A stretch of 56,589 bases of DNA, filler included, from Jimgerdemannia flammicorona (lineage: Eukaryota), in assembly GCA_003990765.1 (NCBI GenBank). It is 3 parts of 3 records of this genome, joined end to end, with 100 filler letters (N's around TTAATTAATTAA, not from the genome) between each part and the next. Parts side by side here need not be neighbours in the genome. Positions count along the whole stretch, not along the records: positions 18,900 to 37,695 come from RBNJ01002114.1; 2 more parts are not named here. One strand, written 5' to 3'. Each line of letters begins with the position of its first letter. Position 1 is the first letter of the stretch. The notes under the pieces are model-generated. The model made no database searches. It saw only the letters and a list, made by a program, of their open reading frames with translations, and was not told the DNA's origin. This document shows, piece after piece, positions 4,378 through 55,479 of this stretch. Made by a program: the position numbers and the translations under genes.

Positions 4378-4409
4378 TCATGCATGCAATTCAATAAAAA
4401 AGTACAACC

Positions 4410-19139: not shown

Positions 19140-21199
19140 TGTAAGTGCACAACCTCCAAGCCACCGAAATTACATGTCACCCTCTGAACAAGCCACTGAA
19201 ATCACATGCGACCTCTGAACAAATCTGGAAATCACCTGCTTGATCACGAAGCTGAGTCAAACCAAAGTCACAGTGCACAAAGCTGAGTCAATACAAAGTT
19301 ACAGAACACAAGGTTTATACAAACGGAATCTTACTAATCAGGACCAAATACATATATACCAAGTACCGAGATGCATCAAATCAGAGAACCAACACAAACA
19401 ACAACCATAACTTCTAAATATACAAACATGACCACTGAGATCTACAACCATATCCGCACTGACATTTGGAATACCATTATCAACTGAGCTACACCCCCTC
19501 TGCCCCTCATAAATATCCATAGCCTAGCACCCCTCTACTTTGTGGAAGCCCGATGGAACACTCTGAACATACTTAGCGAGGCCCACCAAATCGGACAAAT
19601 CTCAAGCTACTACCAGATCGGCTGCCTCCTGGAAGATATAGTCGAACACCACTATGACACAGACATTACCCAGATGTCTCAACACCAGAAGCTCATCGCC
19701 CATAAACATCGAGAACTCTTCTACGAGTATAGTACCATTATTTTCTGCCTCCAAGTTACTACTAGCAAAATGGTTGCTACTCTGTCCTATGGCCAAATCG
19801 ATGACATGATACAAGAACTCAACCACAAGTACCTCAAGTATGTCAAAACCACAGACAGAACCTTCCCACACCCCAATGATCAAATCCTACAAATGCCCCA
19901 AGTTGGATATATCATAAAGGACATCTATGATATAATCCACTTCGATGAAGATGAAGCAGAAGACAATGATCCCTCTGATGCCGACATGACCTCTAGCCAA
20001 GGATCACTGCCAACCCTGATCACCCCGCTAACCTTGCTGATGAACTTACAACAGTTCATATATAACTACATATGAGACTTATTGGGACAATGACCACTGG
20101 CACGAATACCAACCCGCATTCACCCCTGATTACTTCAACTACAATGAAGAAACCAGAGAACACAACCTGTACCTTCAGACAACCCTCGAGATTGAACCAA
20201 CCACTTCACCACCCAAGTACGAGCGACAGGAACCACAGCCACCAGCATACTATAACCCTGCCATAACCTATAGAAGGTATGCAGACAGCGAATCCAATGA
20301 AAGCAAAGACAATATACTCCTCCTTCGCCCACTAATACCTTATCCAGCATACAAGACAGACGATGCTATCCTATAGGATGGAGACAAAGTTCCAATGCAC
20401 TATTATCTCAGTGAATAAGGAGAAGTAATCCATGAACCATTATTCCTAGACAACTACTTCATCAGAGATGATGCAATTGATGGTGATGTCATCGAAGACT
20501 ACCCAGACAGCGCCTAAACCTATAAATAGCCTAGCAGTCATAGTATAGTTAGATTAGCCTTATACAATATGACTGTGAACTGACTCAGCAGTCAGACAAT
20601 CTCTTAACATGTCAGATCACACTTGTCCTACGTAACTGTATTCTGACTCAGCAAAGCACTTAGTGCTACATCCATATTTAGCATAGTCCAGATAGCCCCT
20701 CACTAGTATAAATACCCCCTCCCCCAGACCTCAGAATCTCAGACTCAAATACACAAGAACATTCCTGAATACTTCTCCACAATATCCCTTCATACAAATA
20801 CTCCTAGTATAGCAATATCATGAATAGCAAATAAACCTATTCCATAACCCACAAACCACTCTTAAGTAAATCTGCTCCCACTCCTTATTAGGTCCCACTC
20901 CTAACCCTGTCACGAAATTTCCTAATTGGGTACTGTCTGCAGCAATACACCAATTCAACTAAGCTGGTCTTAGTTTCTTAAACTTCCTGAAATACGGAAA
21001 ATCCTGAACATCCAGAACTAGTCTGAAAAAGGATTTTGGTTGAGACATCAATCCAATCTTGAAATCAATAAGCATAGAGGACATACTCTATACGAAATTG
21101 ATCTTGACCATAAGAAAATGGTCTTCCAGAATATCCTGAACCTCCAGAAAACTCTTTCAGAACTACATAAAGGTTGCCCTAAAAAGCAACCCTCTTACA
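19140..21199 (+). repeat. 5' LTR of element B (2060 bp)
   Basis: TGTAAG...CTTACA termini. Matches 27709-27843 plus 34189-36122. TATAAATA box at about 20707. Confidence 0.95.
19428..20517 (+). pseudogene. Uncharacterised ORF inside LTR U3 (5' copy)
   Basis: MTTEIYNHIRTDIW...EARWNTLNILSEAHQIGQISSYYQIG...DDAIDGDVIEDYPDSA*. One 2-bp insertion near 20060 and a few transition-type stops. Confidence 0.75.
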
Positions 21200-21202
21200 A
21201 CT

Positions 21203-21215
21203 TGGTAGCAGCAGT
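21203..21215 (+). promoter_or_regulatory. Primer-binding site, probably tRNA-iMet
   Basis: TGGTAGCAG, 3 nt after the LTR, is complementary to the CUGCUACCA 3' end found in many eukaryotic initiator tRNAs. Confidence 0.75.
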
Positions 21216-21239: not shown

Positions 21240-23154
21240 CGCTTTCTCACCCTGCTATAAACCCCTCTACAAATTCCTACAAGTTGGTATAAAGCCCAAT
21301 CTCTGAACTGAAATTTATCCGAACTGTCTGACAATCTGGAGAGAATTGAACCTGACATATAAGGACAATTTGACCTCCACATCTGCAACAAGTGGGACAA
21401 ACTTCATTCAAAGAAAGAAGTCCTCAGGTTAAACCAGCAAATAGGTGAAACCCTATTCACCAAACTCCTTGTACTATACCCAGCAAGTCAAGATGAAGAA
21501 GGTCTTATTGAAGCCTTCTTTACTCTTCTCAATAAGAGTTTTGTCAGCTCCACAAATCCAAGTGACCTAGGACAACCAGCAGCAGTCTTTCTAGCCTTAG
21601 TTCCTCACAAAGCCCAAGCCTCTGTAGCCAAGTGGCTCAACTCTACCGACTTTCACCACACCAGGACCAAGACTGCCTTATACTACCGATTCCAGAATAG
21701 CAAGGCCCGCCATATCCTTAAGGAAGAAGCAAGAGAAACCCTTCATCAACTACCTGACCCCGAACCTGAAGCAGGCCCTGCTACAGCCCTACCTGAATCT
21801 GAAACCAATACCAAACCTGAACTTGACTTTGAATTAAGTCTGTCTGAAATCAGATATACAACTGATTCTGTCTACTTTAACGCCAAGCAAACCCAATTAT
21901 ACAGGGACCAAACTGAAGAAGAGGAGGAGTATCTCAGTGAATTCAATCCCAGATATACCACTGAAGGAGAAGTACCTCCATCAGGACAGAATACACCTAT
22001 ACAGCAACAAACAGTTACCTATCAAGCCCTCACTCCAGATCCACAACTACTACTCCAGCAACTTACACAGACTCAAAAAACCCCATCACACTCTGCACCA
22101 GTACCTCAAGTAGTACCAGTAACACCACTACCAGCCTCCAGTAAACAACATGGCAAACCAACAGATTCTAGACCTCACAGCCCAGGTAGTCATAATGATA
22201 GCAACTATTACTATCTTAGCTGAACAGACCCGACCTACTAAAAATCTGAGTCTACCTACCTTCAATGGTACTGCATAAGAAGTCCAAAGCTTCATTAGTG
22301 TAGTTGACACCAACTTCGAAGCCAATTAATGGACTAATGAGCGAGTTGCTGACTGCGTTCTGATAAACAATCAAGACCACACCCTGGAACAACTCTTTGC
22401 TACCACTACAGCCTATATTTGCTGAGTTGTTACATTCTTCCGAGGACCTGCCAAAGAATGGTGGCGAACCCTTCCTGAAAAACCCCTTACATGGGATACC
22501 CGACCTGCAGTAGTTGCCCAGAATGCAGCAAACAATGCCCCAGGATATGGAGCCCATCCTGCAGCCCCTGGACTCAAACAACTCATGATTGCCCAATACC
22601 ACAGTAAAACCATGATTGCTGAATCTCAAGTAAAACTCCGCAACCTCAAATTTGATGTATATGACAAAGAAGAATTCAAAACCTTCTATACAAAACTCGA
22701 GTCACTCCTGAACACTGTTGGCCTAGGATACATCGCCAATGATGAAGCACGAAATGGTACAAGAGCAGACCATTTATTCGATGCACTGCCTGAATGGCTT
22801 ACTAGAAAAATCCAAGAACAAGGCTGCCCAGTTGGTTGTGACCACCAACAATGGTGCCTGGCGAGAATCAAGACCATGGTCAAGCGAATCCTAATAGCTG
22901 GACCCATTCTGCCCCAAAGGCAATTTAACAACAAGGAAAAGACTTGGACCAGGAAAGAAGAACCCAAGCATGAAGCATCCCGAGCTCCCTCCACATCTAC
23001 CTCTTGGACACCCAGAAATTCTAAACCCACCCAGCCCAGTACCTTCAAGAAACTTACTAAAGATGAAAGGAATGAACTTCGAAGAAGCAGAGCATGCTTC
23101 TATTGCCGAAAGACAGGATATATGGCCAGTGCCTACCCTAACCGAAAACCCTGA
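21240..23154 (+). pseudogene. gag of element B
   Basis: Capsid-like region and a degenerate CCHC knuckle (CFYCRKTGYMASAYP). Start approximate. Confidence 0.8.
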
Positions 23155-23199
23155 ACAGCAATATGAGCAACTGTTACCGCTCTTCACCACCTCAACAAC

Positions 23200-23625
23200 C
23201 TGACCACCAGAACACTGGACTTTATTAAGTTAAGACAAACTGCTAAGGCTCCAACCAAAGGAAGTCAAAAAGCTGCTGGATATGACCTGTATGCAGCTGA
23301 AGAAGCTACAGTTTCCAACTGAGAAGTCAAACAAGTCTATACAGGAATCAGTATCCAAATCCCTGAAGGACATGTCAGAAGAATATACTGTCGCAGCAGC
23401 CTAGCATTGAAAGGACTCTCAGTAGAAAGAGGAGTCATTGATGAGGATTACACAGGCGAAATTATTGTCCTCATTCAAAACCACAGTTGGACACCCTTCA
23501 AGATCCCTATTGGCTTCTGTATTGTACAGATCCTATTCGAAAAAATCGAGTCAACCCTGACAGTCAAGGAAGTCCCTGAACTACTGCCTACCATCTGAGG
23601 ATCCAAAGGATTTGGCTCATCAAAC
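23200..23625 (+). pseudogene. dUTPase domain of element B, between gag and protease
   Basis: AAGYDLYA, CRSSLALKGL, GVIDEDYTGEI, IVQILF, *GSKGFGSS (trimeric dUTPase motifs 1-5). In frame with gag through CGA>TGA-type stops. Confidence 0.93.
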
Positions 23626-23829
23626 AAGGCCCCAGCCCAATCTATCATGAGCAAAGAAGAACAATTCTACAAGAAGATTGAAGATAGATATGTGCCAAGT
23701 GGCTGATGCCCTCTTGGCATTGGAATGTATGTACTCTTCCTAAATGATTGATGATTGCTTCTCTTGCATCAACGAACTGGCTCAAAGAAGAACCAATAGA
23801 AGGAAAGCTCCTACAACTGAAATTACCAC

Positions 23830-26800
23830 CATTGGATCAGACAAACTGCTCACCCTTAAGGCTTTTGTCAATGGAGCACCTGTCAAGATTATGATAGACA
23901 GTAGTGCCTCAGGCAACTTCATCAATGAAGAGACAGCCAACAGACTCAAGGTCTTCACCTCTCCAGTACAGCAAACTCAAGCAGTTGCCACAGCTGATGG
24001 AACCTCACATGTTATTAGCAAAGAAGTCCACAATCTACCCTTCTGAATTGGCAACTACTGAGTACATGTTACCCTCTAAATCGTACCACTTCCTGACAAT
24101 GAAATCATCCTTGGAACTCCATGGTTAAAACAAGAGAACCCAATGATTGATTGGGTAAACCATTCTCTGACCATCAAGAAAGGATGCCACAACTTAAACT
24201 ACAAGGCAAAAAGGACCCACTCAACTCTAGTGACTCTGGACCAAAGATCACCCACATCAATAAGCTACAACTCAAAAAATTGGCCAAGAAATGCCCTCTC
24301 TTTGCTATCTCCATCCGCCCATCCAAAGGAGAACCTGAGAACTCTGAAGAAGATTTTTCCAAAGTTGACAGCCATGTCAGACCACTACTCCAGAAATTCT
24401 GGGACATATTCCCAAAAAAGCTCCCGAAAGGCCTACCTCCCAAACGAGCAGTAGACCATGCAATCAAGACTATCCCAGATACCAAACCAGCCTTCAAGTC
24501 AATCTACCACATGTCTCCGAGAGAAATCAATGCACTCAAGAAAGAAATTGATGAACTCCTAGAACAAGGATTCATCAGACCCAGTGTATCACCCTATGGT
24601 ACACCAGTCCTCTTTGTTGTCAAAAAAGGAGGAGACCTGTGAATGTGCATTGACTACCGTGATCTCAATAAACAGACCATCAAGAACTGTTGCCCACTAC
24701 CGAGGATTGATAAAATATTTGATAGGCTCACTAACACACAATTCATGAGCTCTTTTGACCTGCGAAACGGTTACTGGCAAATTGCCATGAAAGAAGAAGA
24801 TATCTACAAGACAGCTTTCCGAACTCGCTATGGACACTTTGAGTTCCTGGTTATGCCCTTTGGCTTAACTAATGCTCCAGCAATCTTCCAGACACTGATG
24901 AATACCATTCTGCATCCATACTTGGACAAATTCATTATTGTCTATATTGACAACATCCTAGTCTTCAGCAAAACCCTGGAGGAACATCTTGAACACCTTG
25001 AACTAGTACTACTGAAACTCTGAGAAAACCGACTCTTTGCAAAACTCAGCAAGTGTGAATTTCTTCTAAAAGAGATTCAATTCCTTGGACACATTGTCAC
25101 TCCAAATAGAATCAAAGTGGACCCCAGCAAAATCTCTGCAATCAAGGATTGGCCCACACTCAAGAAGCTAAAAGACCTCCAGTCATTCCTGGGATTAGCA
25201 AATTATTACAGGTGATTTGTTGCCAACTTTGCTAAAATCGCTACTGCCTTCACCCAAATGACCAAGCACAGCAAGAAACAAGAACAACTCTGGACCATGA
25301 AACAAGAGAAAGACTTCAACAATCTTGTAAATTGGGGACATGAGCAAGATACCGCCTTTCAAGCACTGAAAGATACCTTGATAACCACTCCAGTACTTCA
25401 AGCAGCAAACCCTGCCCTACCATATGAAGTCACTACTGATGCCTCTGACCTAGCTCTCGGAGCAGTGCTCATGTAAGAAGGACACCCTGTGGCCTACCAC
25501 TCCCACAAGTTCAATGATGCCGAAATCAACTACGCAACTCATGAGAAGGAAATGCTAGCCATCATAGACACTCTGATCAAATGGCAACCATACCTAGAAG
25601 GAGCACACTTCACTGTATTAACTGACCACAAGTCATTAGTCAACATCAAGACACAGGCTACCCTTTCCCGAAAGCAAGCCAGATGGATGAAAGTCCTCAC
25701 CAACTTTGACTATGAAATCCAGTACCACCCTGGTAAGGAAAATATTGTTGCTGATGCAATCTCCAGACCACCAATCAAAGAGATTATCCAAACTCTGACC
25801 TTGGTTACCAACACTATCATGGAACAAATCATTGCAGCATGTATTGATGATAAGGAAGCTCAAGTACTCTGAGAAATCCTGAACAATGATAATGCTGACA
25901 AGCATACCCAGTACAATCAATACCAACTCAAGGACAATACTATCTACTACAAGAACAGATTGTATGTTCTGAACAACCGAGACCTCTGAAGGACTATCCT
26001 ATTCAAATGTCATGATGCCCCTATAGCTGGACATTTAGGATTTGACAAATGCTATAAAGTTATCTTCTGGAACTTCTATTGGCCCTGCATAACAGATCAG
26101 CTCAAAACCTACATCACTTCCTGTGATGTCTGCCAACAAAACAAGTCCTCAATACTAGCAAAACCTGGCTTACTCTACCCTATTCTGGTACCATCTGCAA
26201 ATTGGGAACAAATCTCTATGGACTTTATTATACAACTACCCCGAACTAAGAATGGGAAAGATGCAATTGTTGTCTTTGTAGACTATCTCAGCAAACAAGC
26301 CCACTTTGTACCTACTACTACTACTGCAACAGTACCAGATATAGCCACACTCTTATTTGACAATATTTTCTGCTATCATGGTCTTCTTAAGATCATTGTT
26401 AGTGACTGAGATCTGAAATTCACCAGCCACTTTTGGAAAGCCCTCCATACATACCTTGGAACAAAACTTGCACTATCCACAGCCTTTTACCCAGAAACTG
26501 ATGGTCAAACTGAAAGAATGAACCGAACTCTGGAACAAATGCTAAGGAACTATGTTTCCTACAGACAAGATGACTGGCATGAATACCTCACCACAGTTGA
26601 ATTTGCCTACAACAATAGCAAGCAAGCCTCTCTTGGAATAACCCCATTCTTCGCCAACACTGGACAAAATCCAAACACCCCTTTGACACTTATCCGAACC
26701 ACTGAAGAACCCTCTACAGTCAAAGCTGTTGAAGAATTCTTACTCCGAATGTGCAATTTAAGCCAGATTGCTATCGAGAATTTATTACGAGCTCAAGAAC

Positions 26801-27285
26801 AACAATCACAGTATGTTAACCAACACTGCCGAGAAGAAACTTTTGATATTGGAGAAAAAGTTCTACTGGACATCAGAGGATATCGAGTTGACAACCTCAA
26901 GCACAGACTATCTACAAAGCTGAACAGCAAGTTCATTGGACCATTTGAAGTTATTGTACAAGTCTCTCCAACCTCCTACAAACTGGTGCTACCAGACACC
27001 ATTAAGATTCACCCAGTCTTTAATGTTCAATGTCTCAAGCGATACAATGACAATGATGATGAGCTATTTCCAAATCAGACCACCAAACCACCTGCACCTG
27101 TCATCATTAATGACCAAGAAGAGTATGAAGTTGAACAAATCCTCAATAAATGTAGCAACAAGAGCCACCCTGAGTATCTTATCAAATGGAAAGATTACCT
27201 GATCTATGATGCAACCTGGGAACCCAAGACCAACCTTCAGAATGTTACCGATCTAGTTCAGGAATATGATTCCTTGAACAACTAG
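23830..27285 (+). pseudogene. pol of element B: protease, RT, RNase H, integrase, chromodomain
   Basis: [99 protein letters not shown]...YLIKWKDY..YDATWEP. Confidence 0.96.
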
Positions 27286-27694
27286 AACCAAATATTCCGC
27301 ACCCATCTACACATACTATATTATCCTCCTGAACATTATAATTATTGTGAACCAAACCAAGAACTCAGCAAAACAAGACAAGAATACTGAATTCCTGGAA
27401 AAATAGCAAAACTGAAAGCAAGCCTATTCTCTCTATACCACTGGTGGGAAACAAGGCATAGACATTTAAGAAGATTCCTTAGAGGAAATTCTCCAGCAGT
27501 GAATGACGTCAGAATCACTTCTGGTATACAGCATTGAACATACAACTCTTTAACATGTGAATCCAACGTATTAGGCAACTGTACTACGAGCATGCCACTT
27601 TCTGAGAAAATAGACCTTACCAGACTTTTGACCTCCCAAATGGTGTAACAACACTAGAACAAATTAAAAGGCCCCAACAAGGACATTGAAAGCT

Positions 27695-27707
27695 AAGAAG
27701 GGGAGAG
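27695..27707 (+). promoter_or_regulatory. Polypurine tract of element B
   Basis: AAGAAGGGGAGAG just before the 3' LTR start TGTAAG at 27709. Confidence 0.85.
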
Positions 27708-27899
27708 TTGTAAGTACACAATCTCCAAGCCACCGAAATTACATATCACCCTCTGAACAAGCCACTAAAATTACACGTGACCTCCGAACAAATCTGGAAA
27801 TCACCTGCTTGATCATGAAGCTGAGTCAAACCAAAGTTACAGCTAGTGCTCCGAACAAATGGAGTTGATCCGGATGAGATTTGATTCAGATTCGTCATG

Positions 27900-28066
27900 T
27901 GATGGATTCGAATCAACTCAGATTGGTCTCGTGATCTGATCCGGATTGATCCAGATTGATCCAGATTGATCCATCTGGATTGATCCATCCAGATTGATCC
28001 ATCTGGATGATCCATCCAGATGATCCATCCGGATTGACTCATCCGGATTGATCCATTCGGATTGAA
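27900..28066. repeat. hAT left subterminal repeats (GATTGATCC(A/G)G-like)
   Basis: Direct short repeats next to the TIR. Confidence 0.85.
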
Positions 28067-28266
28067 ATCTTTGGTGACGTCACTCTTTCTTTTGTTTATT
28101 TCGCTCTTGTTTTTTTTTCTGCCATACTTTGGTGATATCACCCTTTCCTTTGTTCTCTCTCTTTTCTTTGTTCTTTTTCTTTGTTCTTTCCTGCCGCATC
28201 ATGAGCAAATAAAACAGCAGCCCTTAATTCATATATTAGTCCAGTCTACTCATTTTTCACCCTACA

Positions 28267-30325
28267 ATGATTGTCAAAAGAGGGAGTATTCAAGGTGGAA
28301 ACGCACTCTCTGCTGACAATGTTAGATTCTTTCTCATATGGACAGCACACAAGCTGCTCATCGAGAGCCAAAGGGGTGATGGCAGTGGCAGTGGCAATGG
28401 CGATGGTGGGGATGAGAGAGAATTCCAGCAACAACTCATGGTGGCCCTTTCAACCTTAGAATTCACAGACCTCACAGCTATGTATGCAGCAGCCTTTTTG
28501 GAGCAGCCGATAGTAGATGTAGGTTGCTCACTCAGCTGCCACTTATTTACTTATATTTATTTATTTAAACTTCTCCAGCATGATCCAATTCATCTCATGC
28601 TTTTCTTAGGGTCTACAGCTCTACGGCGAGATCTGCCAACTTTATTCGCAACATCTGGTCAAGATGAAGAAAGGCTGGTGGACATTGCAGGGCATGCCTT
28701 TGGTGGCTGAGCTGTTGAGTCAATGCATCACGTGGTGGAGGTCTCAAAAGGAACAGAAGCAAGCCTTCATGAGCAATTCTTGTGCAACTTGTCGGCATGC
28801 AACTTGTCAGCATGCAACTCATCGGCATATAGCTCACTCACTCATGCTCTTTTTCTGAAATACCCATCTCCGTGTTTTATTTAATTTCATTTTTACATGG
28901 TCTCCCCCTAAAAAACACCCACACCCACACACAACCTGTATGCAATCCATCCGCATGCAACCCACCCACCCGCATGCAACCCGCCCACCCGCATGTAACC
29001 CGCCCACACACAACCCACCCACAACCCGCCTGCATGCAACCTGCCTGCATGCAACCTGTCCACATACTTATCTCGGTCCCTCAGATCAGGGCTCAGTTCT
29101 ATTGGAAAGGAGAGTTCAAAGTTACCTGAGTTCAACCACGTCTGGTGTCTGATCAAATAGAGAAATTTGAGGGCAAGATATTCAGCATGAGCAGTACCAG
29201 CATCATTATCAAGGCTTGGGGGTCTACATTCGAATCAGAGCCAATTGTACTCAACCAAGGGATCCATTGGCCAGCAGGAGTAACCAACGACAAAGAGAAC
29301 TATATCTTTATTAACGAACATAGAGAGGTGGTTGCAATGGTGGTAAAGAACCTCTACAGTGACGAGCTTCGCCACCATATCAATGAGATTTGCGAGAATT
29401 GCGTCAAATACCAGGTAGCAGGGAAGAGGGGGTGAAAAAAGCAAGGAGGGGGGGTTTGGACAGGAATTGGGTATACTGCAATACTGGCGAAGGGTGGGTT
29501 CCGAAATCCCCCACACTCGTCTCCCTTTTTTTTTAACCCCTTCCCAGATAAATCACACTCTTCACTGACATACTCTTTTTGATACAATTCTAGAGATGCA
29601 CAAGATTCTGTACCCCTACCGGAACTTTAGAAGTACTGTCAAAGAGCAAACTATGCGCAAGCACAACACGGTCTATGCGGTGATGGCGGCTATGATCTGG
29701 GGTTCTTTGAGCAGATTGGTAGAGCATACGGCAGGCCAGCTTGGTGGTGATCTCGGCACAGCTGTACATACGTTCTTGGCACAATTTAACATGCCGTATG
29801 AGGTGAGGAGCTCCGCTTTTTTGGGGTACTGCAGCCTGGGGGGTTTCTGCAGCCTGGGGGGTTTCTGCTCCCTGAACGCAAAAAGGACTGACCAGTTGCC
29901 ATCCGTTTTAGCAGGTTTCCAAGCCGGGGCTCCTGGGGCTGGACTAAGGGCAGGCATCCACCAGCACAGCCTGGCAGTATGAGGTCCTGGGCCAAGGGTT
30001 CACCTAACCATATGCTCGCATCACATCAGGATATGTTGGGCGCAACCTTTCTCTGCCCATACACACAGATAACAATGTCACCCTGGTAATGTTTTATGTC
30101 CTGGAAAGGAAGGGCCCAACCTGGGAGGATAGCGGCAGAGTTTGGTACAACCTCACCTATGGTTTCGGAGTCCCGTTTGTGGCCAACACAGCTGTCCTAT
30201 TCCAACCACATGACCACCATGGTACTGTCGCCTTCGAGGAGAGCTCGGACACAACAGTCATCGCACTCACAATGGATGACAGGCTCATCAAGGCCTGGGA
30301 CCGGCGGGTGGAGCAGTTTTTGTGA
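28267..30325 (+). pseudogene. Spliced cargo gene, putative TET/JBP-like Fe(II) dioxygenase
   Basis: Exons 29085-29493, 29594-29802 and 29912-30325 join in frame via GT-AG introns. They give ...KRG(R)KKQGGGVWTGIGY...SGYVGRNLSLPIHTDNN...GRVWYNLTYGFGVPFVANTAVLFQPHDHHGT...VIALTMDDRL. HxD at 30062-30070, distal His at 30218. The link to upstream exons (28267 to about 28760) is inferred. Confidence 0.7.
28930..29060. repeat. Intronic minisatellite (GCATGCAACCCGCCC-like)
   Basis: Degenerate direct repeats upstream of the acceptor at 29084; related CATGCAACT units at about 28780-28825. Confidence 0.7.
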
Positions 30326-30610
30326 GGGTTAGGCAATCTTTCATAAGGGTTAGGCAGCCATTTTGTACAGGTTGGGCAGTCTTATGTGGGGGGGTGGGGC
30401 CGGGCGCCTCTTATGTAGCACTAGCTTAGCCATTATATAGGGCCCTATCGGCCCCTCGGCCCTGCTCTATAGTGCTGCTGGTGCAGCACTACAGCGCAGG
30501 GCTGGGGTGCCCATGGGACCCGAACCGGCAACTTCGACCACCGGAAATGCCCTCTGACTGCCAGAAGCACCCTCTGACCACCAGAAGCACCCTCCACCCT
30601 GGACTCCTTA

Positions 30611-30925
30611 GTGGCTTGGGGCTGCCCCTATACCACTAGTGGAGGGCCGCAAATTTTGCGTGCTCCCTCTGCCTGCCCCGCCTGCCAACTGACCCCGCCC
30701 ACTGACCCAGGCACTGACAGCTTGGGGCTGCCCCTTGCTGCTGGTGGAGGGCTGCAAATTTTGTGCACTCCCTCTGCCTCCCCCCCCAACCTGGACACTT
30801 GTGGCTTGGGGCTGCCCCTTGCTGCTGACGGAGGGCCGCAAATTTTGTGCGCTCCCTCCGCTGACCCGCCTACTGACCCGCCCACCAACCCAGGCACTGG
30901 CAGCTTGGGGCTGCCCCTTGCACGC
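30611..30925. repeat. GC-rich tandem repeat between the convergent cargo and transposase genes
   Basis: GCTTGGGGCTGCCCCT at 30614, 30720, 30804 and 30903; the first three are followed by GGAGGGC(C/T)GCAAATTTTG. Confidence 0.9.
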
Positions 30926-31072
30926 CCCCTCTGCTGCCGCCGCCACCAACTCTGCTCCACTTTGGCTGCAAACTCTGGGCCGAGTCCTCAGGTTTTTTTT
31001 TCCTTTTTATTAATTTGAAAGGTATTAAATATTCCACAAGGCCAACCAACTTATCCACAGACCCGCCAAATT

Positions 31073-33615
31073 TTAGCGGCCCGAGCCCCACCAAGACTTC
31101 AGACACATACATGCCCAGATTGTCTCAGCATTCAGCACATACCTCTTTGGGGCAATGAGGTCCACCCCACCTGAGAACACCTGCTCGATGAGAGCGCTGG
31201 AGACAGGAATCGCCAGGTAGTCCCAAGCCATACCACACAGGCTGGGGAAGTCTGTTTGACACAGCTGCATGCCTCAGTGGATAGAGTGGTGGTTAGATTG
31301 GTGGGTTAAATTGGCCCAACGCCTGCCTGACAACCCACCTTCCACCAGTTGAGCACCTCCATGCCCTCCAGCAGGACCACATGGTCGCTGGCAAGGTAAA
31401 TGGTAAGTTCGTCTATTGATGGCAGCTCTTCCACTGATGGCTCCCTCTTCCTCTTTCTGCTAAAGTAAATGTGAGACAGGAGAAATCCCTTGGTATATTC
31501 GTCTGGACTTTGGCCAGAACCTTGCGGCGGTGCATAGTTTTTCCGGTACACTTCAATTACGGCCTGCTTGGTTCTCTCAATGAAGTACTACTCCCAGCCC
31601 TGATCTTTATGGTATTGTAGCTTTAAGCGTGGGTCCAGCACTGTTTGAAGAAAGGAGAGTGAGTTTTTGTGGGGTTTCCTCTGTTTTGGAAGGGGCAACG
31701 GCCACACGCCAACATCGACATATCTGTACTGATTGAGTATATGGTAGTATCTGTTTGGGTGTAGTATTTTCTAAGCTTGCTTAGAGCAACAACCATGGTG
31801 TCTCTCTGATCCGGGCTTAACTGTAAATCACTGCAACCCTCCAGCCTGTCCTCGAGCTTGTCCTCTAGCTGGTCAATCAGAAGGTTGTATACCAGTATCG
31901 CAGAGCTTATTGTTGAGGTCATTTATTTGACTATATCCTTTATACAATCGTCAAAACACTGGCAGTTATATGTGGTGAGATATTGCACTGTGCGGAGGCA
32001 GACAAAATGAGTATAGAGCCAGGGCAACCACCACTTACTTCCAAAACTCTGACAATATTCCTAAGTATGTCTCACTCGCTTTCACCTAGAGCTTCGGCCC
32101 GTATTTCCTTATCAGCAGCCATCGTTGAATCTATTAGCTTTTTTTTTTTTTTAAAAATAAATCTTCCATCATCTAAAATAGTTGCTTCAGCTGACCAAAG
32201 AAAAAAAGGATACATACCACAGCAAACTCCAGTGTGCGCTGGATCATTGCAAATGTTGAGTTCCAATGTATACAGACGTCCAATATAAGCTCTTTCAGGG
32301 CTAAACTGATTGCTCTATACTGCGCAGCGAATTTGTCTCGTCATTGTGGGGATGATCGGACCGACACAACCAGTTTGCGCAGCTTGGAAATTATACTCAG
32401 GGCCCCTCCTCTCTTGGATGTTTTGTCTATGTGCATAAGATAGTCCTGAATAGCGAGGTTCAGTACGTGGGCCTGGCATTGCACATGGCAGCTTTCTGTA
32501 CTGAAGGCCATGTTTTCCTGTTTGAGGCTGGCTGCTAAATCTTGGAAAAATATTGAGTTATTTGTGGCATTGTCCATCGTAATGGCCAAAATCTGTACTT
32601 GAAATATTTGGTTGACAAATTTATATGAAAATAAGTAACCAATAAAATCTGGTTTGGTTTAGGACCTCTCTCAAAATGCCGACCTGACGGCAAGCCCCCC
32701 TTTTTTACCTTGGTGGTGATCCCAAGCTCCCGGATACAACTAATAAAAGCATCTATGATATTGTCTCCAGAATGAGGGCCAGCAAGTTTGACGAAGTCAA
32801 GGGTGAGAGATTTAAGCTGCCAATCGAGGTCAATCTAATGACCGGTAATGCCCAGAAATGAAATTGCATTGGGGGATGTCCATGTGTCGATCGTAAACGA
32901 AATTTTGCCTGCCAAATTCTGCTTATTGAATGTAAGGTTAAATTGGTGAGCTCTTTTGTATAATTCAGCTTGCAAAGGTCATGGTGCTGCCCTTATTTTA
33001 CCTGAAGTGTCTGGCAGAGATTGTCATACTCCTTCCTATAGGCCTCCAGGACATCTTTGCAAATAGTATCGGCACTTGGCAAATATAAATCATGCTTGAG
33101 GAGGCCAAAGATACTATGCAATTAATCACTCTCGATGGTTGTGAATGGCTGGTCTGTGCACACAATCCAGTGAATGAGCCGATTTCGAAATTCTGCCAAA
33201 GAGTATGGCTAAAATTTTTGATTAAATGGCGTTATTGGTACAGAAATGGTCAGGCAATCAGATAAACGTACCCACCATAGCTTAGATGTCGATTTTATTT
33301 GTCTCTGTGTTCTTTTTGATTTTGTCAGAGTACTTGTCTTTTATGTGTCGATTTATGTTTGAAGTCGTACCCCCAAGCATTTTGAACTTCTGGCTGGTAC
33401 AGTTCATGGGGGTGGATGAAACAATATCATGTATGTGTCAAAACAATATCATGTGTGTGTCAAAACAAAGTGTCAATAGGTGTGTCTTAATTTTTTACCT
33501 GCAATAATTACAAACAACATCATCTCCTATCTTAGTACAATGCTGCCAGATTTCAGAGCAAGGATTGCGTGGAAGGTGTGGAACTATCAGGGATGTTTGA
33601 CTTGAAGCATCATTG
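31073..33615 (-). pseudogene. hAT transposase with BED zinc finger, multi-intron, with stops
   Basis: SEIWQHC...VVCNYC...GTTSNINRHIK (BED); DQPFTTIES; SFTIDTWTS..AISFLGITGH; HSGDNI; ITMDNATNN; CQAHVLNLAIQ; LDVCIHWNST; VLNWWK; FPSLCGMAWDYLAIPVSSALIEQVFS (dimerisation). Start approximate. Confidence 0.95.
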
Positions 33616-33744
33616 GTACTGTGAACTGTTGAAGACTGATCTGTCGATATGTGTGTTTGCGTATTTGCGTGTGCATATGTATGTGTGTGTGTGTATGCAT
33701 GTGTGTGTGTTATGTTATAGATGCATCTAGCATATGAGTCATGT

Positions 33745-34110
33745 GGAGGATTTGGATTGGAGGATTTGGTTGAAGGATTCGGATGAGGATTCGGATTGAA
33801 GGATTTGAATTGGAGGATTTGAATTAGAGGATTCGAATTGGAGGATTCGAATTGAGTGATTCAGATTGAGTGATTCAGATTGAGTGATTCGGATTGAGTG
33901 ATTCAGATTGAGTGGTTTGGATTGGAGTGGTTCGGATGGGTGATTCAGATGGGTGATTCGGATGGGGCAATTCAGATGAGGCGATTCAGATTGAGTGATT
34001 TGGATTGAGTGATTCGGATTGGGGTGGTTCGGATGGGTGATTCGGATGGGGTGATTCAGATGGGGTGATTCAGATTAAATCTGAGTTGATTCGGATGGCT
34101 TCAGATTTGA
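33745..34110. repeat. hAT right subterminal repeats (GATTC(G/A)GATTGAGT-like)
   Basis: Many degenerate 13-15-bp direct repeats near the TIR, preceded by a (TG)n microsatellite at about 33650-33710. Confidence 0.88.
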
Positions 34111-34341
34111 GATTTGAATCAAACCGTCATGTGATGAATCAAATCCGGATTTGATTTGAATTGACTCATTCGGAGCACTAGTCACAGCATACAAAGCTGA
34201 GTCAATATGAAGTCACAGAACACAAGGTTTACATAAATGAAATCTTACTAATCAGGACCAAATACATATATACCAAGTACCGAGACATGTCAAATCAGAG
34301 AACCAACACAAACAACAACCACAACTTCTAAACACACAAAC

Positions 34342-35439
34342 ATGACCACTGAGATCTACAACTGTATCCGTGCTGACATTTGGAATGCTATTGTCAACCG
34401 AGCCACACCCCTTCTGCCCCTCATGAATATCCATAGCCTAGCACCCCTCTACTTTGTGGAAGCCTGATGGAATGCTCTGAACATGCTTAGCGAGGCCCAC
34501 CGAATCGGACAAATCTCAAGCTACTACCAGATTGGCCATCTCCTGGAAGACATGGTCGAACACTACCATGATACAGACATTACCCAGATGTCTCAACACC
34601 AGAAGCTCATCGCCCACAAACATTGAGAACTCTTCTATGAGTATAGTACCATTATTCCCTGCCTCCAAGTTACTACTAGTGAAATGATTGCTATCCTGTC
34701 CTATGGCCAAATCGATGACATGATATAAGAACTCAACCACAAGTACCTCGAGTACATCGAAACTACAGACAGAACCTTCCCACACCCCAATGATCAAATC
34801 CTGCAAATGCCCCAAGTTGGATATGACATGAAGGACATCTACGATATAATCCACTTCAATGAAGATAAAGCAGAAGACAATGATCCCTCTGATGCCAACA
34901 TGACCTCTAGCCAAGGATCACTGCCAACCCTGATCACCCCGTCAACCTTGCCGATAAACTTACAACAGTTCATAACTGCATACAAGACTTATTGGGACAA
35001 TGACCACTGGCATGAATACTAATCTGCATTCACCCCCAATTACTTCAACTACAAAGAAGAAACCAGAGAACACAACCTGTACCTTCAGACAACCCTCGAG
35101 ATTGAACCAACCACTTCACCACCCGAGTACGAGTGATAGGAACCACAGCCGCCAGCATACTATAACCCTGCAACTCACAGTGCCATAACCTATAGAAGGT
35201 ATGCAGACAGCGAATCCAATGAAAGCGAAGACAATATACCCATCCTTTGCCCACCAACATCTTATCCAGCATACAAGACAGACGATGCTATCCTATAGGA
35301 TGGAGACGAAGTTCCAATGTACTATTACCTCAGTGAACAAGGAGAAGTAATCCGCGAACTATTATTCCTAAACAACTACTTCATCAGAGATGATGCAATC
35401 AATGATGATGTCATCGAAGACTACCCAGACAGTGCCTAA
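34342..35439 (+). pseudogene. Uncharacterised 365-codon ORF inside LTR U3 (3' copy)
   Basis: ATG 34342 to TAA 35439 is 1098 nt with no net frameshift. Most internal stops are sense codons in the 5' LTR copy. Confidence 0.78.
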
Positions 35440-36122
35440 ACCCATAAATAGCCTAGCAGTCATAGTATAGTTAGATTAGCCTTGTACGACGTAACTGTAA
35501 ACTGATTCAGTAGTCAGACAATCTCTTGACATATCAGATCACACTTGTCCTACGTAACTGCATTCCGACTCAGCAAAGCACTTAGTGCTACATCCATATT
35601 TAGCATAGTCCAGATAGCCCCTCACTAGTATAAATACCCCCTCCCCCAGACCTCAGAATCTCAGACTCGAATATACAAGAACATTCCTGAATACTTCCCT
35701 ACAATATCCCTTCATACAAATACTTCTAGTATAGCAATATCATGAATAGCAAATAAAACCTATTCCATAACCCACAAATCACTCTTAAGTAAATCTGCTC
35801 CCACTCCTTGTTAGGTCCCACTCCTAACCCTGTCATGAAATTTCCTAATTGGGTACTGTCTGCAGCAATACACCAATTCAACTAAGCTGGTCTTAGTTTT
35901 TTGAACTTCCTAAAATACAGAAAATCCTGAATATCCAGAACTAGTCCGAAAAAGAACTTTGGTTGAGATGTCAACCCAATCTTGAAATCAATAAGCGTAG
36001 AGGATGTACTCTATACGAAATTGATCTTGACCATAAGAAAACAGTCTTCCAGAATATCCTGAACCTCCAGAAAACCCTTCCAGAACTATATAAAGGTTGC
36101 CCTAAAAAGTAACCCTCTTACA

Positions 36123-36885
36123 CATGAACCATTATTCCTAGACGACTACTTTATCAGAGATGATGCAATTGATGGTGATATCATTGAGGACTACCCAGAC
36201 AGCACCTATACCCATAATTAGCCTAGCAGTCATAATATAGTTAGATTAGCCTTGTACGATGTGACTGTGAACTGACTTAGTAGTCAGATAATCTCTTGAT
36301 ATATCAGATCACACTTGTACTATGTGACTGCATTCTGACTCAGCAAGACACTTAGTACTACATCCATATCTAGCATAGTCCAGATAGCCCCTCACTAGTA
36401 TAAATACCCCCTCCCCCAGACCTCAGAATCTCAGACTTGAACACATAAGAATATTCCTGAATACTTCCCCCACAATATCCCTTTACATAACCACTCCTAG
36501 TATAGCAATATCATGAATAGCAAATAAACCTATTTAATAACCCACAAACCACTCTTAAGTAAATCTGCTCCCTGTTAGGTCCCACTCCTAACCCTGTCAC
36601 GAAATTTCCTAATTGGGTATTGTCTGCAGCAATACACCAATTCAACTAAGCTGGTCTTAGTTTCTTGAACTTCCTGAAATATGGAAATCCTGAATATCCA
36701 GAACTAGTCCGAAAAAGGACTTTGGTTGAGACATCAATCTGATCTAGAAATCAATAAGCATAGAGGACGTACTCCATATGAAATTGATCTTGACCATAAG
36801 AAAACGGTCTTCCAGAATATCCAGAACTTCCAGAAAACCCTTCCAGAACTACGTAACGGTTACCCTAAAAAGTAACCCTCTTATA
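36123..36885 (+). repeat. 3' portion of a further family-B LTR
   Basis: Matches 20431-21199; ends CTCTTATA (decayed TTACA); no PBS follows. Confidence 0.92.
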
Positions 36886-43064: not shown

Positions 43065-44357
43065 CCAACCAAAACTCCACCAAAACAGGTGAGACTTGTT
43101 GTATGCTATAGCTAGACTCCTGCTGCACCTTGTATATCAGAATAGATGATGGGAAAACTTGAAAATGTGTTGCTTGTCATGAAAAGATATCCGTGTGACT
43201 TAGCTTACTCTGAATGGTTCGAGCAAAAGGAGTCATACTTCAGCATAGCTCACATGGTCAGATCATTACTGCTATCTTGGGCTCACTAGTATGTTTCAAT
43301 AACTTCCTAAGTCAGAACAAGTTTCTCAGTGAGTATTGAATTGTTTTTATACTTATTTATCCTTCATGAAGAATTTCTCATTACTAGAGATTTTTCTTTA
43401 TCTTCATCTTTGATCTCTATTATTCTTGACTCAGGTAACTTTGGCATAGGTATATATAGTAGTTGAAAATAATTTTAATTAACTACTGGAAAGGTTGGTG
43501 ATAGTTGCTTTGATTGCTATATTTATACTAGCTGAAATATAGAGATCTCTACTAGTACATCTATGTGGGATTCTTGAATTCCTTTTTCTCTAAATATATA
43601 TTATATGAAATAACTATATACTATTTGTGTAGATCCCAGAGTCTATGTCTTGCTGAAATATTCAAGAAATATATATTAGCTAGCTTTTAGCTCAAATATA
43701 TATTGATTGGTATTACTCTTATTGAGAATATATATTGTATCCAAAGTTTATAGATGAGATATATCTGGCTTGGATATGCTTTATAATTCTTCAGTAGTAA
43801 GATCATTATCTCTGAAATACTTATTATTGCAGAATCCTTACTTAACAATTAAGAAATGTATCAATTACAGATATATACTACTATATTAATAGCTTTGACC
43901 TAATAAGAATATGATAATCCTGCCATATTAATCATCATTCAAGCTATTTCAATGAATATATACTTAAATCACTTAGTTATACCATTTGCTGAGATATATA
44001 GAGAGCAATTATTTGATAAGATATACAACATTTTCTCAGAAACTGCTTGAATATATTATTGATATATTTATATCTATTATCTAATTATATAGTATATACT
44101 CTATATCCTATCTCATTCTCAGTGATCCCTTTGAATTCTTTGAATTTTTCTAAGATTTTGCTCTTTATTGATAGGAAATACATATATATTTTAAGTATAT
44201 AGTATCAATAAATATAATGAAATACTTCTTTCCAGAGTATGATGGCATATATATGGGGCCATATATATATATTAGTATACATAGATAAGATGCAGGATCT
44301 CTAAGACATACTTCAATCATTCTTTAAATAGATATTGAGATGTCTTATTTTCTGTAT

Positions 44358-44823
44358 TGTAACGTAGCAGATACTTACTCTTGAAAGTATGTCAGATTTC
44401 TGTATCTTGAAAACTTGATCTTCTATGACTTCTCAGAGTCCTTTGAGTTGCAGGGGAGGGTGGGTAAGTTCAAAGTGTATCTGCCCACAGGCTTACTAGT
44501 TCCTTTGCTATCTCTTTGCTTTGAACTATTTCGATCTCAGGTTTATTCACTCAAAGATACTGGGTTATTTATACAAGTTTGCTAGCTATGAGATGGTTAC
44601 TGAATTATGTAGCTAAGTTATGAGTCATTTAACACTTTGTGAAATATTTCGCCAGTTGCGAAATACTGTACTATATTGAGAAGCTCAATCTCGCACCTTG
44701 CGAAATATTTAGTAAGTGGCAAAATTGAGGACTGCTAACTATGTGGCTATACTACTTTGGGACTGGGTGTGATCAAGTGTCTGTTCCCTATTTCCTTCTT
44801 CCAAATCTGGCTATACCATCATA
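44358..44823 (-). repeat. 3' LTR of element C
   Basis: Direct repeat of 50579-51044; adjacent PPT. Confidence 0.95.
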
Positions 44824-44849
44824 ACTTCCTCCTGAATAGATGATCTCAT

Positions 44850-45322
44850 CCCTAAAGTATCTATTCAAACTCCCAGGCTTCAATGGTCTGTATGGTCTTG
44901 TACTGTGCAATTTGTTGCATTACTGTTTCCCAATGATCTCGCCTGACTTGGTCAAAGTCTGAGGGAGTCTCTCCTCACAGGTGGGCTAGTGCCAGTTCAT
45001 CCTCTCAGAATAGCTTGTGGATTCTCTTAGCAATAGTGATCTGAGAATAGGAGAGCTGGCATTCTGTGATCCAATTTTCTTTGGTCATTTCTGGGTCTTG
45101 GTTGAGTATTTGGCAAAGTTTGAAGTACTCTTGAAATTCATTTTGATGCTGATAGGCCTTGAAGTGTGAGATCCAAGAGAGATGAGTCTGCAAGATGCTT
45201 TGGATACTGTCATAAGACTCCTCTATGGTTGGAGGCTCGGTGGTGCACCATTGTCTCTCAATGGCTCTTTGGGCAGCACTAGTGATCTTGAGTGCCATTG
45301 CAGTACTTCTGTTATTGGCCAT
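44850..45322 (-). pseudogene. Extra ORF downstream of integrase in element C, function unknown
   Basis: MANNRSTAMALKITSAAQRAIERQW...ITIAKRIHKLF; also retained in the relic at about 5985-6430. Confidence 0.6.
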
Positions 45323-45329
45323 GGTATTT

Positions 45330-48300: not shown

Positions 48301-49130
48301 TTCTCAGCATAGTAGTGGTTTGCAGTTCGAGGATTGTGTGTATTGTGGTAGATAGGTCCATTCCTGCTGCATTCTCTAATTTGTACTGTAGCAAGACTGC
48401 ATCAGGGTGGATCCTTCATATCTTGACTGTGATGTCTTCTTCATCATCACTGTCATTCAATAGCTCTGGTGGTCCATCTTCTGGTTCCTCCTGGTTCTTC
48501 TTTGGCTTGTTGGAGATCTTTTTCACTTCGATGATGCAGGAGTAGCAGCAATCCAAGTACTGGGCACAGTACATTCTTTCACTATGAGGGCACCTTCCTA
48601 GTGGGGCATACATATCTGTCTGTGATCCTTTTGTACTATTCTTCCTCTGTCCACTGCTTATATTTTCCTTTCTTCATGGTAACCATGTAGGCTTCTTCTT
48701 CTTGCTCTTCCTCCATCTCAGGATGGACTCCTTTGTGGACATTGATGGGAATTCTGATCTTCTTTTCCTGATAGATGATTTACATCTTCTGTATACTGAG
48801 ATCGATCATTGCCTTGGCTTTGTGAAGCCATTGATTGCCAATGAGGATATCATAGTTGGTTGCATTGGTGACAATGACATCTACCAGGATGGTGGCTTCT
48901 CCAAACTTGATGGGTGTATCTTGGATCTTTCCCAGAGGTATTGCTCATGTTCTATCAGCTGTAACAAACACCAATTTGGTGGCTTCTTCTATCTTCCAGT
49001 CTAGGCAGTCTACTGCTTTCTTAGTGATGAGACATCCTCCTGCTCCTGTATCAATGATGGCTTCAAAGACTCAGTCCTTGATCTGGCAGGTATGTAGCAT
49101 AGGCGGAGGTTTTGCGATTGTCTTCACTTT
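45330..49130 (-). pseudogene. pol of element C: protease, dUTPase, RT, RNase H, integrase
   Basis: AIIDTGAGGCLIT; AAGMDL, TRSSLAK, GGVINSDYTGEI, RGRAGFGSTG; LDLFSGFYQI, MPFGMCNVPASFQ, VYVDD; QTDASVMGLGAVL, KLECLAVIWA; MDVIGPLP, KWEGPY. Confidence 0.95.
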
Positions 49131-49199
49131 CTTCTCCTGAGTCCTCTTGAATGTTATTGGCCTCAGTTATCTTCCATCCTTACTCCTTGGTTGTTTCAG

Positions 49200-50500: not shown

Positions 50501-50578
50501 TCAGATAGGGATGATTGTTTGTTGTTCAGCTTGAAAGTGAGAGATTCGTCTTGAATCACCAGCCAATAGGCACCAAGT

Positions 50579-51044
50579 TGTAACATAGTGAATGCTTACT
50601 CTTGAAAGTATGTTGGATTTCTGTATCTTGAAAACTTGATCTTCTCTGACTCCTCAGAGTCCTTTGAGTTGCAGGGGAGAGTGGGTGAGTTCGAAGTATA
50701 TCTGCCTGCAGGCTTACTAGTTCCTTTGCTATCTCTTTGCTTTGAACTATTTCAATCTCAGGTTTATTCACTCAAAGATACTGGGTTATTTATACAAGTT
50801 TGCTAGCTATGAGATGGTTACTGGATTATGTGGCTAAGTTATGAGTCATTTAACACTTTGCGAAATATTTTGCCAGTTGTAAAATGCTATACTATATCAA
50901 GAAGCTTGATCTCACACTTTGTGAAATATTTAGCAAGTGGCAAAATCGAGGACTGCTAACTATGTGGCTATACTACTTTGGGACTGGGTGTGATCAAGTA
51001 TCTGTTCCCTATTTCCTTCTTCCAAATCTGGCTATACTGTCACA
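50579..51044 (-). repeat. 5' LTR of element C
   Basis: TGTGACA...GTTACA on the minus strand, followed by the PBS. Confidence 0.95.
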
Positions 51045-53623: not shown

Positions 53624-55479
53624 TATAAGTATACAACCTCTAAATCATCAAAATTATATATCACCCTTAGAACAAATCTGGAAATCATATGTAAGATTAT
53701 AAAGCTGATTCAAATTAAAGTCACAGATCACAAAGCTGAGTCAACTCAAAGTTACAGAATATAAGCTATATGAAAATGTAATCTTACTAATTAGGATTAA
53801 AAGTATATATACCAAACATATAATATATCAAAATAGAGAACTATAATAAACCAAAACAATAACTATAACTTTTAAATATATACTGAAGTCTACAATTATA
53901 TCTATGCTGACATTTACAATACTATTGTTTACCAGGCTATAGTACTTCTACTCTTTAGAAATATCCATAGCTTAGCATCTCTCTATTTTGTAAAAGTCTA
54001 ATGAAATATTCTGAACATACTTAGTAAGGTCCACTAAATTGTACAAATCTTAAGCTACTATCAGATTGGCTGTCTTCTGGAAGATATGATTAACCATCAC
54101 TATAATATAAATATTACAGAAATATCTCAATACTAGAAACTTATTACTAGTAAATACTGAGAACTCTTTTATAAGTATAATACCTTTATTCTCTACCTCT
54201 AGATTATTAGTGATAAAATAGTTATCACTCTGACCTATAGCCAAATTAATGATATAGTACAAGAACTCAATCATAAATATATTATGTATATCCAAACTAC
54301 AAACAGACCCTTTCTATATTCAGATAAATATATCCTACAAATGTCTTAAGTTGAATATATATACTATGAAGAATATCTATAATATAATCTAGTTTGATAA
54401 TAATGAAGTAAAAGTCAATGATCCCTCTCATATAACATGATCTCTAGCCAAGGATTCCAGCCAATACTGATCACTCTACCAGTCTTGCTAATAAACTTAC
54501 AATAGCTTATATCCATATATGAGATCTACTGAGATAATGATTACTGACATGATTACTAATCTTTATTCATACCTGACTACTTCAACTATAATAAAAAAAC
54601 TGGAGAATATAACCAATCTATACCTTCAGATAACTCTTGAGATAGAATTAGCAATTCTACCTCTTTAGTATAAGTGATATAAAGAATAGCCATCAGCTTA
54701 CTATAACTCTATAATATATAGTACTATAACTTACCAAAGATATGCTGATAGTGAATCTGATGAAAGTGAAGATAATATATCCCTTTTTTACTCACTAATA
54801 CTATATCTAGTATATAAGATAGATGACACTATTCTGTGGGATAGTGATCTGATTTTAATATATTACTATATAAATGAATAGAGAGATATAATCTAAGACC
54901 CCTTCTTAAATGACTACATTATCAAAGATGATATCATTGATAGTGATCTCATTGATGAGTATCCAGATAGCCTCCCATTAGTATAAATATTCTCTCTCTC
55001 AGATCTCAGACAATTAGACATAAACAGATAAGTATACTGATAAGAATACTTCTCTATATAAATATCTCTTCACACATTACTCTTAGTATTAGCTAATAGC
55101 AATATTATGAATAGTGAATAAACCTATTTAATAATCTATAAACCACTCTTAAATAAACTCATACTATATTAGGTCCCACTCCTAACTAGATCCAGAAATT
55201 TCTTAATTGAGTATTATCAGTAGTAATATGATAATTCAACTAAGCTTGTCTTAGTTTCTTAAACTTTCGGAAATAAGAAAAATTCTGAATATCTAGAATA
55301 GGTCTGAAAAAGAACTTTGGTTAAGACATTAATTCAATCTTAAAATCAATAAGTATAGAGGATATACTCTATATGGAATTAATCTTGATCTTAAAAAAAT
55401 AGTCTTCCAGAATATCTAGAAATACCTAAAAACCCTTCCAGAACTATGTAATAGTACTCTAACAAAGTATCCTCTTATA
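53624..55479 (+). repeat. Decayed solo LTR of family B, including the U3 ORF remnant
   Basis: TATAAGTATACAACCTC...CCTCTTATA, colinear with 19140-21199; possible 4-bp TSD TACT/TGCT. Confidence 0.88.

Follow-up and report, generated by a model that had tools for sequence, protein, structure and literature searches.

A selected open reading frame inside the long terminal repeats of a Ty3/gypsy chromovirus of Jimgerdemannia flammicorona

Introduction

The long terminal repeats (LTRs) of retrotransposons are usually considered to have no coding function, and a solo LTR is seen as an exhausted promoter. In the 56,589-nucleotide stretch of Jimgerdemannia flammicorona DNA analysed here (assembly GCA_003990765.1; three parts joined end to end with filler, hereafter the window), a sense frame of 365 codons lies inside LTR sequence of a gypsy element, referred to as element B. 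A preliminary description had taken this frame for an accessory gene copied into both LTRs and left behind in solo LTRs. The locus raises the questions of whether such a frame is a gene at all, how it might be expressed from within an LTR, and what its product might do.

Results and discussion

Host element and LTR anatomy

Element B and its relatives displayed the features of Ty3/gypsy chromoviruses (Table 1). These included TG...CA LTRs, a primer-binding site (PBS), a polypurine tract (PPT) and a 5-bp target duplication, which was clear at solo LTRs L004, L005, L008, L009, L042 and L044 and not clean at element B. Pfam domains in the element comprised asp protease, RVT_1, RNase H, integrase, SH3_Tf2-1 and Chromo, in the order PR-RT-RH-IN with a C-terminal chromodomain, and the dUTPase preceded PR. 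The best RT-RH relatives among the matches listed were mostly 40-57% identical over full length. The idea of a separate "ORF0" upstream of gag was rejected, since this stretch is in frame with gag across copies.

The 5' and 3' LTRs of element B were 91.7% identical. The 3' LTR is not contiguous. A 6.3-kb insertion, bounded by terminal inverted repeats of 12 bp, splits it upstream of the ORF, between the two upstream TGAGTCA sites, and the ORF is in the second part of the LTR. The ORF follows the PPT, which places it within the LTR rather than in the position of env. It showed neither of the marks of env-like additional ORFs (aORFs), namely a place in the interval between pol and the 3' LTR and a transmembrane domain.

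Table 1. Coordinates of the ORF copies and of the elements that carry them in the window.
Feature	Position	Strand	Remarks
365-codon LTR ORF, 3' LTR copy	34342..35439	+	7 internal stops; start ATG 34342, end TAA 35437-35439
ORF copy in 5' LTR	19428..20517	+	3 internal stops, frameshifting 4-bp insertion, 12-bp deletion
ORF copy in older-subfamily solo LTR	53877..54986	+	start approximate; heavily decayed
5' LTR, TGTAAG...CTTACA, 2060 bp	19140..21199	+	window self-comparison and LTR ends
PBS-like site TTGGTAGCAGC	21202..21212	+	recurs after 5' LTRs of other copies
Broken gag - dUTPase - protease - RT - RNase H - integrase - SH3 - chromodomain	21283..27290	+	start approximate
Polypurine tract (PPT) AAGAAGGGGAGAGT	27695..27708	+	
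3' LTR, first part, with first TGAGTCA (27822-27828)	27709..27843	+	
Nested hAT-like insertion, not LTR	27844..34180	.	terminal inverted repeats TAGTGCTCCGAA, 8-bp target duplication
3' LTR, remainder	34181..36122	+	
Promoter-like block near ORF	34198..34272	+	TGAGTCA 34198-34204, CCAAT position decayed, TATATA 34267-34272
Main TATA box TATAAATA	35629..35636	+	
AATAAA polyadenylation-type signal	35752..35757	+	
Tandem duplication, last ~760 bp of LTR	36123..36885	+	begins with the ORF's last 26 codons
Solo LTR, older subfamily	53624..55479	+	~70% to young LTR

Several rearrangements were encountered in the family. LTR fragments repeatedly started near LTR position ~1290-1330, in the last ORF codons (the tandem duplication of Table 1, 10217-10956 and L003), and the fragment at 10217-10956 is a truncated 5' LTR, with gag and dUTPase behind it at 10957-13355. 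Directly before the 5' LTR of element B, 18900-19139 holds a same-family integrase end, 94.6% identical to 26754-26993, with no clean target duplication; this junction may have arisen by nested insertion or recombination, or in the assembly. Two deletions that recur among copies, each removing ~210-270 bp of the untranslated region from pol to the PPT, marked young-family sublineages (L003, L014-L016, L019, L023, L028, L103 and L105). Tandem elements with one common LTR (PPT before, PBS after) and back-to-back LTRs were found at L050 and L027. In old-subfamily LTRs L073, L083 and L084, and in the solo LTR of the window, ~175 bp are missing between the ORF end and the main TATA box, so that both downstream TGACTCA sites are absent.

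Other mobile elements shared the window. A second dUTPase-bearing gypsy element on the minus strand (44357-51037), with 460-bp LTRs and a pol ~35% identical, showed no trace of the LTR ORF, and further copies of it were present at L118, L130, L137 and L141. Two copies of an ORF with a Myb/SANT-like domain (PF12776), which we take to be typical of PIF/Harbinger transposons, occupy 106-735 and 3203-3793 within a segment duplicated at ~90%.

The frame is broken in the window and open elsewhere in the genome

The same ORF was found in both LTRs of element B and in the solo LTR, as the preliminary description had it, and all three window copies (3/3) are broken. The solo LTR is just ~70% alike and belongs to an older subfamily. 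The solo copy had accumulated 16 stops and several indels, and its ORF frame terminates within the main TATA box, ~175 bp being missing. In the 3' LTR copy the ORF frame held fewer stops (7) than the other two sense frames (15 and 27).

Genome searches returned 4292, 4465 and 5172 first-look hits, which are candidates and not copy counts. Two samples were drawn from the family, the young one consisting of the 30 best DNA matches to the 3' LTR ORF copy, of 40 scored, and the old one of the 30 best DNA matches to the solo LTR, of 42 matches. Copies picked by protein score were excluded from the selection tests on the LTR ORF, since such picks favour intact frames. Transversion divergence by codon position was 0.3-1.3% in young and 1.6-4.2% in old copies. 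Among the 45 full LTRs listed, six were solos flanked by a matching 5-bp target duplication.

Two of the 30 young copies, selected on DNA, had neither an internal stop nor a frameshift; the frame, whose ancestor was suspected from the outset to have been open, is open in natural copies. Stops per copy averaged 3.2 in the ORF frame, whereas the five remaining frames averaged 14.8, 30.1, 6.1, 24.9 and 23.1. The LTR downstream of the ORF held 12-18 stops per ~224 codons. The terminal TAA was kept in all 31 covered copies. Internal stops had been said to differ mostly between copies: none was fixed, in agreement with this, but they recurred at a few codons, chiefly 42 (17/32 copies), 20 (12/32) and 265 (11/32).

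The ORF evolved under purifying selection

The repeats were strongly CpG-depleted (observed/expected 0.06-0.37 over the whole window). In young copies there were about 10 C/T or G/A changes for every transversion, and most of them affected CA and CG. Because the repeats are riddled with C-to-T changes, selection was measured on transversions. The net transversion dN/dS between subfamilies was 0.29 in the ORF frame (95% bootstrap 0.16-0.60), well below 1, and 0.45-3.3 in the other five frames; the antisense frame with the same third positions gave 0.45, as overlap predicts. In the non-coding LTR downstream, net dN/dS reached 0.59-0.80 with intervals spanning 1.

Changes shared between copies differed in kind from those private to one copy. 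Singletons, private to one copy, represent decay after insertion, while changes shared by at least three copies represent those fixed in transposing lineages. Over 60 copies and two subfamilies, shared transversions comprised 33 synonymous and 37 non-synonymous changes versus 23 and 184 for singletons (Fisher p 1.1e-9), the singleton ratio matching neutral expectation. The contrast was significant in each ORF half (p 0.044 and 7e-10), and absent in every frame of the downstream LTR; it was not significant in young copies alone (p 0.49). For codons 1-170 alone, where the shared/singleton test gave the p of 0.044, the net transversion omega was uninformative (1.35, 0.45-12). Codons 195-255 were the most constrained (net omega 0.01). 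In control regions of 26 copies, shared transversions were 16/6 at the pol 3' end (omega 0.06) and 2/15 in the 3' UTR, which indicates that the ORF is constrained, but less than pol.

None of the 20 indels common to at least four copies fell in the ORF, though it makes up 53% of the LTR (shared indels were counted against one copy and are not all independent), while 54 of the 58 singleton indels within the ORF were frameshifts. The frame lies between the LTR 5' end and the main TATA/AATAAA, in both LTRs and in solo LTRs, and purifying selection acted on it in the transposing lineages of both subfamilies. The LTR ORF is almost certainly a real selected gene, and its description as an accessory gene that each element carries twice and that persists in solo LTRs agrees with the selection on the ORF and with the six solos bearing target duplications.

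Promoter motifs and RNA hints

A block of promoter motifs was conserved upstream of the ORF. In samples of 30 young and 30 old copies, TGASTCA occurred at LTR position 113 in 25 and 15, respectively, and at 144 in 28 and 17, CCAAT at 194 (27 of 30 young) and TATAWA at 213 (28 young and 26 old, of 30 each), and the ATG at LTR 288 is the first conserved ATG after this TATA. In the 3' LTR of the window, the upstream TATA block stands 75 bp before the ATG. TGASTCA is the motif of AP-1/Gcn4-type sites. A downstream block comprised TGASTCA at 1449 and 1512, TATAWA at 1575, the sole other conserved TATAWA in young copies, and AATAAA at 1701. Three TGASTCA sites in one LTR had a p of ~0.02 by Markov resampling, which is moderate. 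The ORF precedes the main TATA box, as originally described, and the TGASTCA x2/CCAAT/TATA block before it, separate from the main TATA/AATAAA, is a new observation.

The simplest reading of the two blocks, by analogy with P1 and P2 of mouse mammary tumour virus (MMTV), would be that the downstream block drives genomic RNA and the upstream block drives the ORF. From these motifs, the ORF probably has its own LTR promoter. A place for the ORF in U3 is suggested by where the motifs stand and, weakly, by RNA; should genomic RNA instead begin at the upstream TATA, the ORF would be part of R.

No RNA run on record was listed as containing the LTR. For two runs presumed to be RNA, the depth of contigs was ~450-2700 over LTR ~1490-2064 (TATA, R, U5) and <20 over most of the ORF; contig depth cannot rank genes, and these values weakly hint at a downstream start while giving no support for ORF expression. 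No GT-AG splice joint was present among the contig joints listed. On L101 the deep contigs of these two runs covered only the TATA-R-U5 part (L101:203-776, LTR ~1490-2064), a hint of abundant short LTR transcripts.

The product is an acidic orphan protein

Searches of 5.8 and 1.84 billion proteins returned just two relatives and one spurious repeat protein. P0001, a metagenome (soil-type) protein, is open over 247 aa with 68-69% identity and conservative changes, and P0002 is a metagenome fragment of 128 aa with 92% identity. P0003 (E 2.6e-6) was rejected as a relative, being a tandem-repeat protein whose match spans 38 residues. The DNA context of P0001 was sought through 74 + 25 metagenome-contig and 20 viral-contig pattern matches, none of which was confirmed. 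The ORF did not resemble gag or pol: the best E was 0.57 against three internal regions of the family and the neighbouring element, and none of the 3 matches among 1.84 billion representatives was annotated as gag/pol.

Known families and structures gave no match either. Pfam returned 0 families for the window copy and the first of 22 alignment members, and a PDB sequence search returned none at E 10. Four weak single-member Pfam matches (E 0.04-0.19) and a lone PHROGs match (E 0.22) were discarded. A 22-sequence profile was run against 148 stretches of unmasked DNA, 590 kb in all and with the window among them. No match scored higher than reversed-sequence decoys, the profile being shallow and the sample ~0.25% of the genome, such that distant versions in other gypsy families may escape.

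The N-terminal half was predicted to be helical. AlphaFold models of the full length (pLDDT 31) and of the N-terminal 150 aa (pLDDT 45), both of low confidence, contained five or six helices in residues ~1-145, the remainder being mostly disordered, in line with the helical N-half proposed earlier. Fold searches brought no information (BFVD best E 1.1; PDB best Z 7.6, among helical bundles). In the Atlas, the look-alike Closter_coat (PF01785) scored 0.82 and 0.89, under the trusted 0.9, with 110 and 137 of 256 features in common where true members typically have 170, and no member (0/22) matched Closter_coat in Pfam. Unnamed Mucoromycota clusters in the Atlas were also below 0.9 and are leads only.

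The protein is strongly acidic (pI 4.4), with 63 D/E versus 20 K/R in the tail, while the N-half is near neutral (net -1, -3 and +2 per 40 aa). By a rule for activation domains that scores 39-aa tiles as acidic and aromatic, several tiles in the second half qualified, having a charge of -8 to -13 and at least 7 W/F/Y/L; this acidic-aromatic composition was also present in L018, L022 and P0001. No hydrophobic or transmembrane segment was found (maximum 19-aa hydropathy 0.86), nor a clear nuclear signal by eye, nor an Arg-rich RNA-binding stretch. A basic DNA-binding domain of the Tas-like kind was lacking, with the N-half net charge about zero.

Proposed mechanism and alternatives

The best explanation overall, held tentatively at somewhat less than even confidence, is an LTR accessory gene with its own promoter that encodes a soluble nuclear trans-acting regulator. 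As the conserved motifs suggest, an RNA polymerase II promoter within the first ~250 bp of the LTR would serve the ORF alone, and its transcript would end at the LTR's own poly(A) signal, such that any intact LTR could be a small expression cassette requiring no splicing. Judged by composition, the product would be a soluble, strongly acidic protein whose N-domain (~1-145) is predicted to be helical. An aromatic block under strong constraint (~195-255) would follow, and the tail, acidic, aromatic and rich in Pro, would resemble an activation domain. It may act in trans in the nucleus, raising or protecting transcription of the element in a genome that methylates and mutates repeats. The role as trans-activator or anti-silencing factor is more tentative still, and trans-activation is weakened because the protein has no basic DNA-binding stretch.

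A frame that is no gene at all, i.e., a compositional open frame, a captured host gene or a gag/pol remnant drifting neutrally, would fit the broken window copies and the lack of a family match and of RNA evidence. It conflicts with the avoidance of indels, the constraint in both subfamilies, the open distant relative and the lack of similarity to the internal region of the element; the shared/singleton contrast largely refutes it, leaving it very improbable. If the gene is real, its tail could instead serve as an adaptor that recruits a Rsp5/Nedd4-type ligase via WW domains, for trafficking, particle handling, or turnover of its own protein or of a host restriction factor. The two motifs noted at the outset, PPEY and PPAY, were both present in the 34342-35439 copy, and were found in 22 and 23 of 30 young copies, respectively. 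The tail is very rich in P and Y, and shuffling it yielded one PPxY in 23% of cases and two in just 2.5%; the first Pro codon differed synonymously between subfamilies, and variants in old copies were mostly of the C-to-T/G-to-A decay type. The form LPAY, likewise bound by WW domains, was the commonest at site 2 in old copies (8/30). Conservation of the motifs is nevertheless blurred by the heavy C-to-T decay of C-rich codons: PPEY was kept in 3/30 and PPAY in 1/30 old copies, mostly with L at the first position of the latter, and P0001 has neither. The most constrained block (195-255) lies outside the motifs, and the element has no env and the protein no membrane segment. While site 1 may be genuine, the ligase link drawn in the preliminary description is possible, weakly supported and not favoured, as the older subfamily and P0001 do not retain the second motif; the adaptor as a whole is improbable.

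Two further alternatives keep the gene and assign it another role. It could be a negative regulator made from LTRs in trans, a dose-dependent brake on copy number protecting the host and thus the element. Ty1 p22, a copy-number control factor, is an analogue. The U3 ORF of MMTV, in the part of the source available, also encodes a repressor (Naf) and offers a precedent (PMC9412291), and a place in every LTR couples dose to copy number over ~4300-5200 candidate places. However, selection for a brake acting in trans should be weak in its own lineage, whereas the selection observed is clear, and the family reached very high copy number, so that we regard this role as a poor candidate. Alternatively, the protein could be a post-transcriptional helper in RNA export or translation, like Rev/Rem and Cer1 CERV, or a structural cofactor associated with particles, and its message would be spliced or come from the 3' LTR. 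CERV gives a precedent in a Ty3/gypsy element according to the available part of PMC10309623, and the helical N-domain and the Closter_coat look-alike (a lead only, at 0.82 and 0.89) point the same way. This role is unlikely for an acidic protein without an Arg-rich RNA-binding stretch, with no GT-AG joint among the contig joints listed and with Closter_coat unmatched in Pfam and short of the Atlas level of true members. The nuclear trans-acting regulator remains the preferred reading.

Comparison with known systems

The closest layout is that of MMTV. In the accessible part of PMC9412291, its sag/naf ORF lies in U3 and is driven by a second promoter, P2, within U3; as here, the ORF is within the LTR and in both LTRs, and both elements carry a dUTPase. 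The likeness is a parallel in layout, not homology: the sequences do not match (0 Pfam families, and no PDB match at E 10), and the present element is a retrotransposon of the non-enveloped chromovirus type in a non-vertebrate host. MMTV Sag is a membrane glycoprotein, whereas the LTR ORF product lacks a transmembrane segment.

Additional ORFs of LTR retrotransposons include env-like ones and the antisense ORFs of Grande, RIRE2, Retand and Boty (PMC7264820), as well as, in the portions of the sources available, Retrosat2 ORF0 (PMC3485330) and bdelloid ORF3 (PMC5408684). Like the ORF here, aORFs are orphan, family-specific and conserved, and that of Grande has its own promoter and a nuclear product. 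In the available text of these three sources they are internal, located before gag or between pol and the 3' LTR, unlike the present ORF, which is wholly in the LTR, duplicated in each element and surviving in solo LTRs. The fungal dUTPase-bearing chromoviruses PcMetavir, Tmt1 and PosPlaTy3 are, in the accessible part of PMC2864245, likewise Ty3/gypsy elements that carry both a dUTPase and a chromodomain; the legend of one figure refers to a further ORF of unknown function, but that text places no ORF in the LTR. The accessible part of PMC3601003 has no mention of ORFs in LTRs.

Foamy virus Tas/Bel1 can serve as a model for the tail, being, in the part of the source available, a ~300-aa accessory protein that trans-activates the LTR and is itself expressed from a second promoter, at the 3' end. 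No homology to it was found, and the protein here has no evident basic DNA-binding region. Tas has an acidic activation domain and is encoded mainly outside the LTR. A literature search with subscription papers mostly outside it found no retrotransposon with a gene wholly inside the LTR, which is not proof of absence; to our knowledge, the gene-in-LTR layout is known solely from vertebrate retroviruses.

Significance

The LTR ORF is a real, selected, orphan accessory gene in an unusual place. Annotation pipelines would miss such a gene. As a small soluble orphan with naturally intact copies, its product could easily be tested in yeast, and it could provide a new tool for transposon counter-silencing, whose factors form a class that, as far as we know, is little known in fungi. 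At its widest, and more doubtfully, each LTR would be an autonomous gene, with hundreds of open copies, solos included, forming a dispersed source, scaling with dose, of a protein of a new kind. Acting in trans against silencing or as an activator, this protein may have let the element reach thousands of copies in a repeat-methylating genome. If this were true, the family would be the non-enveloped retrotransposon counterpart of the MMTV U3 cassette, and its solo LTRs could still yield protein.
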